A DNA stretch of 11,161 nucleotides from Desulfobacterales bacterium (GTDB lineage Bacteria; Desulfobacterota; Desulfobacteria; Desulfobacterales; UBA5616): positions 1-11,161 of the forward strand of contig JAWODC010000081.1 in NCBI GenBank assembly GCA_046483495.1, written 5' to 3'. The translations under genes were made by a program, and so were the position numbers. The notes under the pieces were generated by a model. The model made no database searches. It had not been told where the DNA came from and saw only the letters and a program-made list of their open reading frames with translations. Below, piece by piece: positions 1,654 to 11,161 of this stretch. Positions within the stretch are counted from its first letter, which is position 1, and the number at the start of each line of letters is the position of its first letter.

Positions 1654-1747
1654 CTCTTAAAAAAATTTATTATAGAAGGGTTTGCGTCATTTGAGGCGAT
1701 TTTGGGGAGCTTACAACCCTTGGAAATACATAGTAAAGGAGGTAATC

Positions 1748-2320
1748 GTGAAATCAAAGACGGTAAAGGACCTGATGGTCCCACTTTCGGAATACGCCAC
1801 GGTTTCGGAAGATGCGACGCTCTATGAAGCGGTAATGGCGCTTCGTAGAGCCCAGGAAGAATTTGACCAGACGCGTGATCGCCACCGGGCAATCCTCGTC
1901 TATAACAAATTCGACAAAATAGTTGGAAAAATCAGTCAGTTGGACGTTCTTCATTCCCTTGAACCCAAGTATGGGGAAATGGGGGATGGTCCGATGACCC
2001 GATTCGGCCTGTCGCGGTACGGATTCAGCCCGAAGTTTATGAGAACGATGATGTCCCAATTCAATCTCTGGGAAAAATCGCTGGAAGAAAGCTGCAGAAT
2101 CGCCGGCAAACTCAAGGTGAAAGATATCATGTATACCCCGACACTGGGTGAATTCGTCGAAGACACCGCCAGTCTGTCGGTCGCCATTCACCAGCTGCTT
2201 CTGGGCCACCACCAATCCCTGCTGGTAACCCGCAGGAGAGACATTGTCGGCATTCTGCGGCTGACGGACGTATTTCGAGAAGTCAGCCTGACGTTCGAGC
2301 GCATCGGAAAACCCGGTTAG
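1748..2320 (+). CDS. CBS-pair (Bateman module) protein, 190 aa (copy 1)
   Basis: Start revised from 1682 to GTG at 1748, which follows a perfect AAGGAGGT RBS (1736-1743). CBS motifs VKDLMVP...KIVGKISQLDVL and KVKDIMYTP...LLVTRRRDIVGILRLTDVF. Clear paralog of 5552..6109. Confidence 0.9.
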   Translation: MKSKTVKDLMVPLSEYATVSEDATLYEAVMALRRAQEEFDQTRDRHRAILVYNKFDKIVGKISQLDVLHSLEPKYGEMGDGPMTRFGLSRYGFSPKFMRTMMSQFNLWEKSLEESCRIAGKLKVKDIMYTPTLGEFVEDTASLSVAIHQLLLGHHQSLLVTRRRDIVGILRLTDVFREVSLTFERIGKPG

Positions 2321-2458: not shown

Positions 2459-3958
2459 ATGGAAAAGAATATTGAATATGATATCGAAAAAAAGAAAATC
2501 GACTGGAAGAAGTATATCTTTTTGTTCTTGGGCATTTCCCTTTTTGCCGTAATGTATTATGCCCCCCCGTTTCCCGATGCCGTCGATCCGACAGGAGAGC
2601 ACTTTCCGTTGTCCCGCGAGGCCAAAGGGGCGCTCGCGGTATTTCTGCTGGCGGGTACCTGGTGGGTATTCGAGGTTTTGCCCATCGGGATCACCAGTAT
2701 CGCCATCGGCGTGCTCCAGGCCCTGTTTCTCATTCGTCCGGCAAAGGCCGCCTTCAAGGATTTCATGGACCCGTCGGTCATGTTCATTTTTGCCTCCCTG
2801 ATGATCGGAATGGTGTTTACCAAGACCGGACTCACCAAGCGATTAGCCTACAAAATGCTGATGATCGTGGGTGAGCGCACCAGCATGATCTATCTCGGAT
2901 GTTTTATCGTTACAGCCGCCCTGACCCACATCATGGCCCATACCGCGGTTGCTGCGACGATTTATCCACTGCTGCTTTCCATTTACGCCCTCTATGGCGA
3001 AGGAGACAAGCAGACGCGCTTCGGCAAAGGTCTTTTTATCGGTATGGCCTATGTCGCCGGCGCAGGCAGCATCGTTACGCTTCTGGGCGCAGCCCGGGGT
3101 GCCGTTGCCCTCGGATTTTACCAGGACATCCTGTCCGAAAACATCGCGGCCGGGCTGAATATGGATATCTCGTTCTTTAATCTGAGCTTTTTTATGTTTC
3201 CCATCGGCTGGTTGATGACGTTTTTGCTGTGGGGCTTTTTCATGGTGTTTTTTAAACCCGAAAAGAAGGTGATCCCCGGTCTGAGGGAAAAGGCCGCCCA
3301 GTTGAACAGCCAGTTGGGTCCCATGACAAAAAACGAAATAGTCGCCGCCCTCATCGTTTTCTTCTGTATTGTCCTGATGGGTATTCGGCCATATATTCCA
3401 AGCCTTCAGCCCATAGACAAAACAGCCATTATTCTGCTGTCCACCTTAATGTTTTTTATTACCGGCATTATGGATATCGAGGATCTCGAATCCATTCCCT
3501 GGAACATCATCCTGCTCTTTGCCGGGGCCATGAGCATCGGGTTCTGTTTGTGGGAAACCGGCGCTGCAAAATGGCTGGCCGTCAACTGGCTGGCTATGTT
3601 CCAGAAAGCTCCGGGATTTATTTTCATCATGAGCATCGCCTTTTTCGTGATGATGATGACCAACTTCATCATGAACGTGGCCGCCATCGCCATATCGCTT
3701 CCCGTGGCACTGGTAATCGCTCCTTACCTGGGGGTGGCCCCCGAGGTTATCACATTCGCCTCTCTGGTGGCCGCAGGCATGCCGTTTCTGTTCCTGGTGG
3801 GCGCCGCGCCCAATGCCATCGCCTATGATTCCAAGCAGTTTTCCACGGGCGAATTTTTTCTGTACGGCATACCGGCCAGCATTATACTGATGGTGGTCAT
3901 CGCGGTCTTCGTCTGGCTCATATGGCCCCTGATGGGTATGCCGGTAATGATAAAATGA
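2459..3958 (+). CDS. DASS/SLC13-family anion (sulfate/dicarboxylate-type) permease, 499 aa
   Basis: GGAGG RBS at 2444-2448. Highly hydrophobic multi-TM protein with family signatures WWVFEVLPIGITS, TGLTKRLA, IPWNIILLFAGAMSIG...ETGAAKWLA and C-terminal APNAIAY. Substrate cannot be assigned from sequence. Confidence 0.9.
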   Translation: MEKNIEYDIEKKKIDWKKYIFLFLGISLFAVMYYAPPFPDAVDPTGEHFPLSREAKGALAVFLLAGTWWVFEVLPIGITSIAIGVLQALFLIRPAKAAFKDFMDPSVMFIFASLMIGMVFTKTGLTKRLAYKMLMIVGERTSMIYLGCFIVTAALTHIMAHTAVAATIYPLLLSIYALYGEGDKQTRFGKGLFIGMAYVAGAGSIVTLLGAARGAVALGFYQDILSENIAAGLNMDISFFNLSFFMFPIGWLMTFLLWGFFMVFFKPEKKVIPGLREKAAQLNSQLGPMTKNEIVAALIVFFCIVLMGIRPYIPSLQPIDKTAIILLSTLMFFITGIMDIEDLESIPWNIILLFAGAMSIGFCLWETGAAKWLAVNWLAMFQKAPGFIFIMSIAFFVMMMTNFIMNVAAIAISLPVALVIAPYLGVAPEVITFASLVAAGMPFLFLVGAAPNAIAYDSKQFSTGEFFLYGIPASIILMVVIAVFVWLIWPLMGMPVMIK

Positions 3959-4048: not shown

Positions 4049-5473
4049 TTAAGGCTGAATCATTATGGTTGGATACAGCCCGAGCTTATCCCCCTCGGGA
4101 TACGGCTGTATGGTGTTGAACGAAATATTCTGATTTTTCTGGGCATGGCCCCTGTTTTCGCCGGCGTCATTGAAAAAAGCGCCGTTTGCCTCCAGAATAT
4201 GGTGGATCCGATCCTTAAAGGCGGTAATAAAGGCATTGCCGCTCCCCTCGAAAAACATGTTTCCCTTCGAAAAACCGGCTTTTATTTTCTTGAACTCGGA
4301 TATGGGCAAGCTGTTCATATCGCGTTCTTTTCGATTGGTAATCATCCCCCAAACCACATGGCCGTCAGGTACGGCAAGGTCTTCAACGACATCGATGATC
4401 GTGTGGGGCATGACAATGCATTCCTTTCCGATGGTGAGCCGAACATCAGGCCGCCCCCGCAAAAAGCTGTTAAACCCAACGAATCCGTTCCTGCCCATAT
4501 CCGCCTCGATGATCTTCGCACCATGGGCCGTCACATTGTAGCCTTCCAGTCGTGAATTGATGATAAAACAATTTTCCTGTGCATTGGCGCCTTTTCCGAG
4601 CCAAGCGTTTTGAAGAAAAGCCCGCTGGGATACCAGAACGTTTTCACCGATGTGGGTCTGCGTATCCGTGACGGCATATCGATCCAATGATGCACTGGCG
4701 GGTACCGGCACGGGAGGCTTATGATTGACCTTGTCGAAAACGGGTTGAAACGCTTCTTTTCGCTCTTCCAGAAAATCGATCAGCCGCCCCCGCGGTGGGT
4801 TGCCTGCTGAAAATGAAATATATCCGCTCAATCGATCCAGGGGATACCGGTACAGGAAATTGAAAACATCACCGTTTTTTACCCAGACCGTGCCCGGTCC
4901 GATGTTCTGGTGACTGATTTCACCGGCTTGTATGTAAGAAAACGTGCCGATAATGCAGTCTCGAAGGGTGGTCAAATCCACCGTGGAAAACGGGCCGAGA
5001 AAACACCCGGAAGATGGTGACCCGTGAATATTGGCATAATTTAAGGAAATGGTATCCCGAATATAAAATTTTTCCAGGGTTTCAGGGTCGTGGCTGTAAT
5101 TGTGAACCAACGTTTTGATGAGAAAGCTGTCCTCGATGTCGATGCCTTCGTCATCGGTGATCGGAATGGGCTGGCCGTTGTACTGAAATGCATCGCCTTT
5201 TTTCTTGAGTTCATCGCCGCGAATATCACTTTTGTACAACAGGGAGTTTCTCACCCGGCATTTGCCGAGAAAATAACTTCCGGAAAGGCTGGAATGCACA
5301 AGCTGCAAATCCAGCGGATGATTGGGGGTAATCCCGTAAAACGCATAGAATTTGAGAAGCTTACTCAATGGAATCAGATCGTGGATATACGGATTCACAT
5401 CGATATTCAGTTCACGAAGGTTGATATTGGTTCGCTGGACAATGCGCTGGTAAAGTTTTTCAAGTTCCTTCAT
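4049..5473 (-). CDS. Left-handed beta-helix (hexapeptide repeat) protein, 474 aa, with two gamma-carbonic-anhydrase-like domains in tandem
   Basis: Start revised from 5509 to ATG at 5473 (AAAGGA RBS upstream). Hexapeptide repeats in both halves (CFLGPFSTVD, CIIGTFSYIQ; THIGENVLVSQRAFLQNAWLGKGANAQ, LTIGKECIVMPHTII). Gamma-CA-like motifs IRGDE, LVH, IHG, NAQEN and TAHG. CDS and fold are well supported; enzymatic function is inferred. Confidence 0.85.
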   Translation of the reverse strand: MKELEKLYQRIVQRTNINLRELNIDVNPYIHDLIPLSKLLKFYAFYGITPNHPLDLQLVHSSLSGSYFLGKCRVRNSLLYKSDIRGDELKKKGDAFQYNGQPIPITDDEGIDIEDSFLIKTLVHNYSHDPETLEKFYIRDTISLNYANIHGSPSSGCFLGPFSTVDLTTLRDCIIGTFSYIQAGEISHQNIGPGTVWVKNGDVFNFLYRYPLDRLSGYISFSAGNPPRGRLIDFLEERKEAFQPVFDKVNHKPPVPVPASASLDRYAVTDTQTHIGENVLVSQRAFLQNAWLGKGANAQENCFIINSRLEGYNVTAHGAKIIEADMGRNGFVGFNSFLRGRPDVRLTIGKECIVMPHTIIDVVEDLAVPDGHVVWGMITNRKERDMNSLPISEFKKIKAGFSKGNMFFEGSGNAFITAFKDRIHHILEANGAFFNDAGENRGHAQKNQNISFNTIQPYPEGDKLGLYPTIMIQP

Positions 5474-5551
5474 CGTATTTCCTTTTTGGTTTATTTCACG
5501 GCGGGACACGCCCGCCCGGCGGTAGTTACGCCCTCACATAAACTACCGGCC

Positions 5552-6109
5552 TTACCCCGATGTTTCGTTTTCCTTCATGGCATGGAAAATCGCCGCAAAC
5601 ACATCCGACATCCGCAGAATACCGATAACCGACCCCTCCTCCATAACCATCAAGGACAAATACGGACCCGCGGCAAGCTGATGAATCGCCTCGTCCAATG
5701 ATGCGTCCACCCTGATATATTCGTACTCCGAAGGGGCCTGCATAAACTCTTCGACCCTCATTTTTGCCGGATTTCTGCAAATTTCCTGAAGGCTGCGGCC
5801 CTTGGGGCGGTGTTTTTCATGCATCGCCCCGATGAAATTCGGACTGAAGCCGAATCGGCCGATTTCACCGATTTCTTCCATTTGCCTGTTCCCCGCATTT
5901 ATGGATCGCAGCACGTCCAGTTGGCTGAGTTTTCCCACCACCTTTCCATCCTGGTCCATGACCAGAACCGCACGATGGTGGTACTTGCTGTGGTCGTATT
6001 CCTCCTGAGCCTTTTCCAGTGCGAATACCGCTTCGAAAACGGAAGAGCCCGTTGGAACGGTTGCGTATTCCGATAGCGGCACCATAAGATCCCGGACTGC
6101 ATATTCCAT
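5552..6109 (-). CDS. CBS-pair (Bateman module) protein, 185 aa (copy 2)
   Basis: Start revised from 6124 to ATG at 6109, 7 nt after GAGGAG. VRDLMVPLSEYATV...KVVGKLSQLDVL...VIGILRMSDVF. By hand count, 39 of 66 N-terminal residues are identical to copy 1. Confidence 0.9.
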   Translation of the reverse strand: MEYAVRDLMVPLSEYATVPTGSSVFEAVFALEKAQEEYDHSKYHHRAVLVMDQDGKVVGKLSQLDVLRSINAGNRQMEEIGEIGRFGFSPNFIGAMHEKHRPKGRSLQEICRNPAKMRVEEFMQAPSEYEYIRVDASLDEAIHQLAAGPYLSLMVMEEGSVIGILRMSDVFAAIFHAMKENETSG

Positions 6110-6192
6110 AGTATCACTCCTCAAAGTATCGGCACTGCCGTAGAAAGTAGTTCCAACCTCCGCCTACCCGGCGCTTGTATGATCTATTTTTA

Positions 6193-8941: not shown

Positions 8942-11161
8942 ATGGATTCCCGACCTGCTCAACATCAGCATAGCCGGCATTTTCTCGGCATATGCCTGGG
9001 TGCATCCACCGTTTCCATGGTGCACCTCACCTTAGGCCCTCAAGCAAAAAACAATCCGGCGATAACCCGGGCCGAAACGTTCACCCATGAAGGCAATCCC
9101 CGTCGCACTCTGGACAAGGCCTTGCAGGGATTCGATCTGAACACGATGGATAAAATCGTGGCTACGGGAAGGCGATTTAGAGATTTTGTAAATTTCACCA
9201 CCATTTCCGAGCCCCAAGCCGTAGAATACGCCTATCGTTTTTTGAAGCCGGAAGGCATCGACTGCCCGGCCATCGTATCCGCCGGAGGAGAAACGTTCAT
9301 GGTGTATGTGCTTAACCGGCAGGGTCGCATCGCCAATGTCATCACCGGAAACAAGTGTGCGTCCGGAACCGGTGAATTTTTCCTGCAGCAGTTGCGGCGC
9401 ATGAATGTCACGCTTGAGGAGGCGGCGCTCTGGGCTGCGGACGAAGACCCCTACCCGGTTTCGGGCCGATGCAGCGTGTTTTGCAAATCCGACTGCACGC
9501 ACGCCACCAATAAGGGGATTCCGAAGGCCAACGTTACCGCGGGCCTTTGCCGTATGATGGCGGACAAGATTCTGGAACTATTAAAGAAAGTTGAGCGCAA
9601 AAATGTTATGATCACCGGTGGTACGACGGCCAACCGGATGATGATGCGGCACCTGCGGCAGCATATTAGGGGACTGGTCGTTCCGGACGAGGCCCCCTAC
9701 TTCGAGGCCCTCGGTGCCGCACTATGGGCGACCGAAAATGAGGGGGGAAATTTCGAAAATACGGGCCGATGGTTTAAAAGCCGTTTGGGAATGTATGACA
9801 CGCTGCCGCGGCTGACGGACTATGAATCCCTGGTGGAATTCAAATCGATGGAAACGAGTGTTGCCGCCCCGGGGAATGTCTGCACACTGGGATTGGATGT
9901 GGGATCCACGACAACAAAAGCGGTACTGATGAGGAACCGTGATAATGCGGTGCTGGCATCGGTTTACCTCAGGACCGACGGCGATCCTGTCGAGGCCTCA
10001 CGAAAATGCTATGCGGCGATTGGAGCGCAGGTAACATCGCAAACCGATCCTCAATCTATTCGTATCACCGGGTTGGGTGTCTGCGGATCGGGTCGCCAGA
10101 TCGCCGGGCTGCATGCCCTGACCGACGGTGTCATCAATGAAATCATCGCCCATGCCGCCGCCGCCGTATATTTCGACCCGAAGGTGGACACGATTCTTGA
10201 AATCGGCGGCCAGGATGCCAAGTACACCTATATCGTCAACTCCGTGCCGGCCGATTATGCCATGAATGAAGCATGCTCCGCCGGCACCGGATCTTTTCTG
10301 GAAGAATCCGCCCTTGAAAGCCTCGGAGTGAAGATGGAAGATATCGCTGATATCGCTCTCACCGCCGATAAACCGCCGAACTTCAATGACCAGTGCGCGG
10401 CGTTTATCGCCTCGGATATCAAAAATGCCATTCATGAGGGGGCCCGACACGAAGACATCGTGGCAGGGCTGGTGTATTCCATCTGTATGAATTATACCAA
10501 CCGGGTCAAAGGAAACCGGCAGGTTGGTGAAAAAATATTCATGCAGGGCGGGGTCTGCTACAACCGGGCCGTTCCCATGGCAATGGCGGCTCTCGTCGGC
10601 AAACCCATCGTCGTGCCGCCGGAACCCGGTCTCATGGGGGCTTTCGGTGTCGCACTCGAGGTCAAAAAACGAATTGATCTCGGATTGCTGACTGAGGCCG
10701 ATTATAACCTGGAAACATTGGCTGCACGGGACGTCGTCTACAAGAAACCGTTCATCTGCAAAGGAGGCAAGGAAGGGTGTGACCGCGGCTGCGAAATCGC
10801 CGTCATCGAGATCGAAGGAAAAAAATATCCATTCGGGGGTGCCTGTAACCGGTACTACAACCTTCGGCGCGCGATCCGATATGACGTGAGCCGACTGGAT
10901 CTGGTGAGCGTTCGTCAACGGCTTATTTTCGAGGATTACGGAACAGCCGAGGCACCTTCCGGCATGACAAAAAATCGTGGCCGCATCGGCATCACCAAGA
11001 GCTTTATGGTCAATACCTATTTTCCTCGGTTTCCTTCGCGCCTTCGGATTCGGCAGTTCCGTGTACCTCCGGTCCGGCAGTTTCCGGTACCTCTGATCCG
11101 GTCCCTCCTTCAACCTCCGGTCCGGTCCCTCCTTCAACCTCCGGTCCGGGATCTTTCCCTG
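8942..11161 (+). CDS. 2-hydroxyacyl-CoA dehydratase activator family protein (two BadF/BadG/BcrA/BcrD ASKHA ATPase domains, Cys-rich linker, start of a DUF2229-like region); incomplete, family-like only to ~11026
   Basis: ATG at 8942 with AAGGA RBS (8931-8935); the frame is open for 740 codons to the window edge. Domain 1: GICLGAST, NKCASGTGEF, GRCSVFCKSD. Domain 2: GLDVGSTTTK, EIGGQDAK, MNEACSAGTGSF, DQCAAF, QGGVCYN. Then CKGGKEGCDRGC...GGACNRY and RIGITKSFMVNTYFP. Not in the ORF track because it has no stop in the window. Confidence 0.93.
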   Translation, partial: MDSRPAQHQHSRHFLGICLGASTVSMVHLTLGPQAKNNPAITRAETFTHEGNPRRTLDKALQGFDLNTMDKIVATGRRFRDFVNFTTISEPQAVEYAYRFLKPEGIDCPAIVSAGGETFMVYVLNRQGRIANVITGNKCASGTGEFFLQQLRRMNVTLEEAALWAADEDPYPVSGRCSVFCKSDCTHATNKGIPKANVTAGLCRMMADKILELLKKVERKNVMITGGTTANRMMMRHLRQHIRGLVVPDEAPYFEALGAALWATENEGGNFENTGRWFKSRLGMYDTLPRLTDYESLVEFKSMETSVAAPGNVCTLGLDVGSTTTKAVLMRNRDNAVLASVYLRTDGDPVEASRKCYAAIGAQVTSQTDPQSIRITGLGVCGSGRQIAGLHALTDGVINEIIAHAAAAVYFDPKVDTILEIGGQDAKYTYIVNSVPADYAMNEACSAGTGSFLEESALESLGVKMEDIADIALTADKPPNFNDQCAAFIASDIKNAIHEGARHEDIVAGLVYSICMNYTNRVKGNRQVGEKIFMQGGVCYNRAVPMAMAALVGKPIVVPPEPGLMGAFGVALEVKKRIDLGLLTEADYNLETLAARDVVYKKPFICKGGKEGCDRGCEIAVIEIEGKKYPFGGACNRYYNLRRAIRYDVSRLDLVSVRQRLIFEDYGTAEAPSGMTKNRGRIGITKSFMVNTYFPRFPSRLRIRQFRVPPVRQFPVPLIRSLLQPPVRSLLQPPVRDLSL
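11042..11161. repeat. Degenerate 24-bp tandem repeat, about 5 units, consensus CCTCCGGTCCGGTCCCTCCTTCAA
   Basis: Units: 11042 CTTCGGATTCGGCAGTTCCGTGTA; 11066 CCTCCGGTCCGGCAGTTTCCGGTA; 11090 CCTCTGATCCGGTCCCTCCTTCAA; 11114 CCTCCGGTCCGGTCCCTCCTTCAA; 11138 CCTCCGGTCCGGGATCTTTCCCTG. Confidence 0.9.

Follow-up and report, generated by a model that had tools for sequence, protein, structure and literature searches.

A tandem gamma-carbonic-anhydrase-like protein of Desulfobacterales with complementary half-sites, predicted to form one metal site and encoded in a DASS-CBS anion-transport cluster

Cam from Methanosarcina thermophila (1QQ0/1QRG) is the gamma-carbonic anhydrase (gamma-CA) against which the present protein is best compared. 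It combines a left-handed beta-helix (LbH) with a C-terminal helix; D61 and D76 are among its site residues, and R59 pairs with D76. A CcmM-CcmN complex also exists (7D6C). Its make-up is 2:1. Cam is a one-domain homotrimer with three sites according to the accessible text of PMC4519908, whereas the tandem protein described here consists of two unlike domains carrying a half-site each. Both share the LbH and C-terminal helix, equivalents of R59, D61, E62, N73, Q75, D76 (as Glu), H81, H117, H122 and N202, and an acidic-residue loop after the H81 equivalent; the tandem protein differs in having no strict Glu84 and in its additional N-terminal helices, hairpins and C-terminal tail. Cam numbering and residue roles follow the accessible text of PMC4519908 and PMC7199487.

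An asymmetric precedent is found in plant complex I, where the gCA1/gCA2/gCAL heterotrimer holds one complete metal site with the same residue split. In Arabidopsis, gCA1 gives H130, N99, Q101, D102 and Y207, and gCA2 gives H107, H135 and R86, as stated in the accessible parts of PMC8290278. That source describes three separate complex I-bound subunits and lists gCA1 and gCA2 each with active-site residues, whereas the halves of the tandem protein are fused and each incomplete, no third subunit is evident, and the setting is a bacterial anion-transport cluster. Two gamma-CA-like domains per chain, with whole-protein superposition, are likewise present in the fusion P0275, in Atlas clusters of 338-363 aa and in PaaY (8GPP). 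P0275 differs in that both domains have three His, so it shows no complementary loss, and it may represent an ancestral-type state. The gene kinds around the present locus are those of a DASS-CBS-two-component sulfate-uptake cluster of Desulfobacteraceae, whose DASS protein is assigned to sulfate uptake in the accessible parts of PMC11887813; carbonic anhydrase appears in neither its text nor one of its supplements, and its data tables may list the tandem gene. The accessible part of PMC5840216 contains neither 'anhydrase' nor 'CBS'.

The window, that is, the whole 11,161-nucleotide stretch of DNA analysed, contains an open frame on its minus strand that translates into 474 aa (protein P0001). 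The following features are relevant.

1682..2320, plus strand: second CBS-pair gene, sharing 44% identity with the one at 5552..6124 and preceding the DASS gene; start codon tentative
2459..3958, plus strand: DASS-family anion symporter gene, convergent with the tandem gene; conserved cluster partner
4049..5473, minus strand: tandem gamma-CA-like protein gene, 474 aa; 3C8V family, Pfam PF18776
4052..4732, minus strand: domain 2 (D2), residues 248-474; gamma-CA fold and C-terminal helix; one-His side
4139..4240, minus strand: helix 412-431 with N430 (Cam N202) and the GHAQ motif 442-445; from profiles, model and conservation
4523..4525, minus strand: H317 (Cam H117), predicted third metal ligand; from profile register and conservation
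4574..4585, minus strand: N297-A-Q299-E300 (Cam N73/Q75/D76); from profile register and conservation
4733..5356, minus strand: domain 1 (D1), about residues 40-247; left-handed beta-helix and helix 230-247; two-His side
5024..5026, minus strand: H150 (Cam H122), predicted metal ligand; from profile register and conservation
5039..5041, minus strand: N145, D1 counterpart of Cam H117; variable, with H in 135, D in 47, N in 35 and P in 17 of 251 homologues
5072..5101, minus strand: loop 125-134 (H128, D129, E131, E134), at the site of the Cam acidic loop
5102..5104, minus strand: H124 (Cam H81), predicted metal ligand; from profile register and conservation
5210..5221, minus strand: R85-G-D87-E88 (Cam R59/D61/E62); 0.96-0.98 of 48 representatives
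5480..5484, minus strand: AAGGA, ribosome-binding-site-like, 6 nt ahead of ATG 5473
5552..6124, minus strand: CBS-pair protein gene, directly upstream of the tandem gene on the same strand, with a 78-bp gap

Homologue alignments begin at the same Met as ATG 5473, and every residue and coordinate that a first-pass annotation of this DNA had given (R85-G-D87-E88, H124, N145, H150, N297-A-Q299-E300, I305, H317, I322 and N430) was found to be correct. The CBS-pair gene at 5552..6124 and the tandem gene are likely co-transcribed. Promoter and terminator scans of the window gave results at chance level, and a sigma-54 motif preceding the CBS gene was present at 3 of 76 loci and not in the window. 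Four metatranscriptome runs contained scattered pieces of 150-280 bases from the tandem gene, both CBS genes and DASS at 99% identity or more; these matches are contigs and tell nothing on transcription or co-transcription. At 11000-11161, where the window ends, short repeated peptides terminate the frame of an acyl-CoA dehydratase activase, possibly an assembly artefact.

The protein belongs to the 3C8V / PF18776 family, based on full-length homology and on Hexapep_loop (PF18776), the only Pfam model above its cut-off. No NCBIfam model reached the cut-off, with a weak CcmM match far below it and a weak LpxD match. The crystal structure 3C8V, a 'putative acetyltransferase' (YP_390128.1 of Desulfovibrio G20), is a full-length homologue (E 2e-154, 52% identity) and holds all ten site residues; its residues at positions 145 and 425 are Pro and Arg, respectively. 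At least 2222 sequence clusters contained homologues at E 0.001 or better, and the named close relatives were mostly Desulfobacterales and Desulfobulbales. A short subfamily of 349-401 aa at 24-29% identity retained RxDE, both D1 His, NxQE, the D2 His and the helix Asn, and had neither the N-terminal helices nor the acidic HDPE loop; its members (P0233, P0234, P0236, P0237 and P0271-P0274, one named from Desulfobacterales) would make good minimal scaffolds for assays. Other variants included P0121, a single record whose N-terminal extension resembles a response-regulator receiver domain by eye, and an Atlas cluster of 227 aa with 55 members comprising D1 only, which could be contig-end fragments or a split form. 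No longer fused form was seen among 5584 candidates of 831-2370 aa, which is weak evidence.

To place both domains on the gamma-CA site, each half-alignment was compared by hhalign with a Cam-type profile (13 sequences) and a CamH/YrdA-type profile (17 loci left after motif filtering of 30), both built from fetched genomes. D2 aligned with the CamH/YrdA-type profile at a probability of 97.9 and with the Cam-type profile at 97.1, setting N297-x-Q299-E300 on N-x-Q-D, I305 on H81, H317 on H117 and I322 on H122, with no RGD; PDB profile alignments gave the same register. N430 fell on the Asn202 column of the Cam-type profile, in agreement with the earlier likening of the D2 C-terminal helix to the Asn202 helix. 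D1 aligned more weakly with the CamH-type profile (probability 74.5, E 2.7e-5), which set RGDE on RGD, H124 on H81, N145 on H117 and H150 on H122, and gave no alignment with the Cam-type profile (probability 0.9). The registers proposed earlier by eye were thus recovered, for D1 only with the CamH-type profile. Similarity between the D1 and D2 profiles themselves was undetectable (probability 1.5).

Accordingly, no single domain contains the equivalents of His81, His117 and His122: D1 has two, with N145 at the third position, and D2 has one, with I305 and I322 at the others and no RxD. Across D1 and D2 together, the aligned sequences place all three in the right registers, conserved, and the second-shell equivalents of R59, D61, E62, N73, Q75, D76 (as Glu) and N202 each occur once, split between the two domains. 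With no complete His3 set in a single domain, the protein is not classed as a canonical gamma-CA, though it would work like Cam. The partition between D2 and D1 equals the two-subunit partition of the gamma-CA site given in the accessible parts of PMC8290278, which supports the interpretation. By fold, D2 superposed on Cam 1QQ0 from end to end (residues 248-451 on 6-213, Z 18.0, rmsd 2.0 A over 163 residues). D2 possesses both the left-handed beta-helix and the antiparallel C-terminal helix, and D1 shows the same elements in the model.

Conservation was assessed on 251 full-length sequences, comprising 120 listed clusters, 77 of 80 close loci, 22 distant loci, 28 of 150 representatives (fragments and frameshifted entries having been left out) and 4 others. 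All ten site residues were present in 243 of the 251; two of the remaining eight are alignment slips in the short subfamily and six are degenerate sequences. The three His (H124, H150 and H317) are conserved, and His was never found at 305 or 322 (0/251). Among 48 long-family representatives below 70% identity, a set that includes degenerate sequences, the ten site columns had a mean conservation of 0.94 compared with 0.55 for 202 polar columns, a level not attained by any of 100000 random sets of ten such columns. Cam-type residues were present in 0.94-0.98 of these representatives on D1 side A and in 0.88-1.0 on D2 side B. The reciprocal losses proposed by the first-pass annotation were seen as well: the N73/Q75/D76 positions of D1 were Cam-type in only 0-0.08 of the 48, and the R59/H81/H122 positions of D2 in 0-0.04. 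Its statement that D1 had lost the H117 equivalent holds for this protein (N145) and fails family-wide, His145 being present in 135 of 251 homologues.

With strand registers taken from the model and 42 intact representatives (six degenerate and eight short sequences excluded), the faces predicted to meet showed conservation of 0.97 and 0.91, the predicted free faces 0.59 and 0.73 and the background 0.62; helix conservation was 0.91 in D2 versus 0.47 in D1. In the same 42, 10 of 19 invariant polar residues lie at Cam site positions. The acidic loop noted earlier after H124 (HDPE) is present here, with H128 in 37 and D129 in 34 of the 42; its likeness to Cam is partial, since the Glu84 position is Ser127 and HDPE is missing in the short subfamily. 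The six degenerate homologues (P0125, P0133, P0136, P0137, P0145 and P0149) have all lost N297 and N430, and four of them also lack D1 site residues. Mostly hit in both halves and still full-length, they are possible non-catalytic paralogues. In the tree they occupy three separate positions; since this quick tree left 18 of 39 inner branches unresolved, the losses can be counted only approximately as independent events.

The genomic context links the tandem gene to anion transport. A CBS gene lies directly upstream of it in 76 of 79 close loci, an arrangement mostly replaced in 22 more distant loci by a nearby CBS-DASS pair. A DASS orthologue (55-80% identical) was located no more than 5 kb away at 14 of 20 distant loci and at 10 of 80 close loci, a set with many truncated members, and SulP at 7 of these 100 loci. 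The cluster is rich in regulators. Of 301 sampled genomes from the phylum, 24 have the tandem gene and 60 the DASS orthologue; the latter is present in 23 of the 24 carriers and lies within 8 kb of the tandem gene in 16 of the 23 (8 families). In one genome with a full copy elsewhere, the N-terminal part of a second copy of the tandem gene (G264:C15:6-113) lies 45 bases past a DASS gene and is cut by the contig end.

Among the 37 DASS genomes without the tandem gene, 12 have a beta- or LCIB-type CA near DASS, the LCIB proteins being taken here, from their Pfam name, to be active CAs. The LCIB-type gene lies within 150 bases of the DASS stop in 5 of the 37 (2 families), and the beta-CA gene 3.9-7.1 kb from DASS in 7 of the 37 (2 families).

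L185:5682-6389, L186:7921-8631 and L188-L190: LCIB-type CA directly downstream of DASS; five genomes of two families without the tandem protein
L198, L200, L203, L207, L216 and L223: beta-CA 3.9-5.5 kb from DASS; two further families

No CA was seen near DASS in the other 25 of the 37, some of them on short contigs. Another CA near DASS was found in none of the 23 carriers with both genes and LCIB in none of the 24 carriers; where carriers have a beta-CA (5/23), it lies elsewhere than the DASS neighbourhood. The contrast in CA near DASS gave a Fisher P of ~0.002, on a post-hoc subset of DASS genomes in which kin are not independent, and beta-CA showed no phylum-wide depletion in carriers (6/23 versus 15/50). 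The genome of the present bacterium (96.7% complete) showed no alpha-, beta- or LCIB-type CA and one CamH/YrdA-type gene (L111:950-1483, minus strand, contig C94), which keeps RGD, NxQD, H81 and H117 and has Arg in place of H122; the H122 His is also missing in 6 of 17 CamH/YrdA-type proteins of related genomes. It is conceivable that this protein serves as a third-subunit partner of the tandem protein.

These results point to two gamma-CA-like domains whose complementary Cam half-sites would build one His3 site for CO2/bicarbonate, with a balancing role for the DASS-CBS cluster, and this appears the likelier account as a whole. The single-chain composite site put forward by the first-pass annotation is largely supported, the convergence of the three His in space being predicted from the residue pattern, which allows one site per chain. 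A composite metal site is very probably present, and given such a site, its formation within one chain can be expected with high confidence; CO2 hydration is probably the main reaction. A tandem duplication probably joined two subunits of an ancestral trimer into a single chain, and each domain would then have dropped the face no longer used. D1 would supply H124, H150 and R85/D87/E88, and D2 would supply H317, N297/Q299/E300 and N430. A divalent metal (Zn, Fe or Co) at H124/H150/H317 would bind water, activated as in Cam, while Q299, N297 and N430 would orient the substrate, the Cam hydrogen-bond network thus being supplied by D2. Proton transfer could be carried out by E88 and loop 125-134, a candidate proton shuttle, and an R85-E300 pair would tie D1 to D2. 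The least certain step is the job itself, balancing bicarbonate, CO2 and protons for DASS-CBS anion uptake; the gene linkage to DASS suggests such bicarbonate or pH balancing.

The composite His3 site could also be real and serve mainly another purpose, either hydrolysis of a small substrate (COS, or a thioester of the kind suggested for relatives of PaaY/CaiE) or sensing of bicarbonate or another anion and regulation of DASS together with the CBS protein. This would fit the tie of PaaY with Cam as best D2 fold match (Z 18.5 versus 18.0), the regulator-rich cluster, the persistence of degenerate homologues at full length and the inactivity of YrdA, RicA and TtCA, which have the gamma-CA fold, reported in the accessible text of PMC12648627. 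However, the equivalents of E62, Q75 and N202 are present, a set whose addition raised a weak gamma-CA activity 17-fold according to the accessible text of PMC7199487, and two unrelated CA classes occupy the DASS neighbourhood where the tandem protein is absent. A main function other than CO2 hydration is thus regarded as unlikely.

A further arrangement would assemble the CA site between the chains of a dimer, trimer or tetramer, with D1 of one chain facing D2 of the next, and His145 homologues might add a second site. The 3C8V entry contains four chains, the classical gamma-CA sites are all intermolecular in the accessible text of PMC4519908, and His145 is frequent as given above. On the other side, the AF2 model (pLDDT 94.9, pTM 0.94) matched 3C8V over the whole chain with a TM of 0.94 and an rmsd of 1.4-1.5 A (1.4 over 460 residues), an agreement that is not independent because 3C8V is old enough for AF2 training; the pTM and the whole-chain match argue for a fixed D1-D2 arrangement. 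Consistent with side-by-side domains, residues 42-454 of the Atlas model superposed on two hexapeptide/CaiE clusters of 338-363 aa (TM 0.76-0.78 by target, 0.57-0.60 by query). Position 145 can be H, D, N or P and is Pro in 3C8V, and NxQD and the helix Asn are absent from D1 throughout the 48 representatives, so a second site would be without its other parts and position 145 reads as a relic. Sites between chains are therefore judged improbable. A canonical D1 homotrimer using position 145 was rejected for P0001, which has Asn145 and no NxQD.

The name under which the family is filed, hexapeptide acyltransferase, draws on the PDB title of 3C8V and on database names of the matches, which are automatic and for which no paper testing them was found; the conserved His would then be catalytic bases or structural. 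D1 alone is ambiguous by fold, its TM being 0.52-0.58 whether the cluster is gamma-CA, PaaY or acyltransferase (0.52-0.55 for gamma-CA clusters); its four matches extending through the helix region include gamma-CA, PaaY and one acetyltransferase cluster, and an Atlas feature search with D1 returned only DUF4954, under 0.9. Two GlmU entries preceded Cam in Foldseek E-value order (target TM 0.2 versus 0.6) and GlmU came first after 3C8V in one profile search, a placement above gamma-CAs that is attributed to its long beta-helix. In the D2 search of 48161 chains, ranks 2-12 were gamma-CAs, PaaY, CcmM or complex I chains (Z 16.5-18.5), followed by a dynactin-complex chain (Z 16.4) and then by acyltransferases at Z 15.0 or less over fewer residues, the first of which (Z 15.0) ends before the helix; the concern that the halves might match transferases better is thus not borne out for D2. 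Together with invariant polar residues that map one-to-one on the gamma-CA site and the lack of a conserved sugar- or lipid-biosynthesis neighbour across 20 distant loci, this makes an acyltransferase very improbable despite the annotations, the weak LpxD and GlmU matches and the ambiguity of D1.

A literature search, mostly without subscription journals, retrieved no description of a fused complementary split-site gamma-CA or of a function for the 3C8V family; for 3C8V itself no functional study was found and only protein-design work matched, and guessed G20 locus tags led only to an unrelated mention of a sulfate transporter. One-site asymmetry is already known from plant complex I, whereas for the fusion of complementary halves in one chain, new as far as this search reaches, no description was found. 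The composite-site reading would provide a specific testable function for at least 2222 sequence clusters and for a crystal structure labelled 'putative acetyltransferase' since 2008. Since accounts of gamma-CAs present them as trimers whose sites lie between subunits, a natural one-chain composite site would make the three-fold assembly dispensable, and an asymmetric scaffold for mechanism and engineering would follow.

More tentatively, a single-chain one-site gamma-CA might fill a 'carbonic anhydrase slot' of the DASS-CBS cluster of sulfate reducers, occupied by beta- or LCIB-type enzymes in other lineages. If so, the DASS 'sodium/sulfate symporter' would be part of a prokaryotic transport metabolon that couples it to bicarbonate or protons, either by exchanging sulfate for bicarbonate or by transporting bicarbonate, with consequences for the energetics of sulfate uptake. 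With three unrelated CA classes exchanging beside one DASS orthologue, sulfate reducers would allow a direct test of how uptake of sulfate or anions is coupled to bicarbonate and pH.
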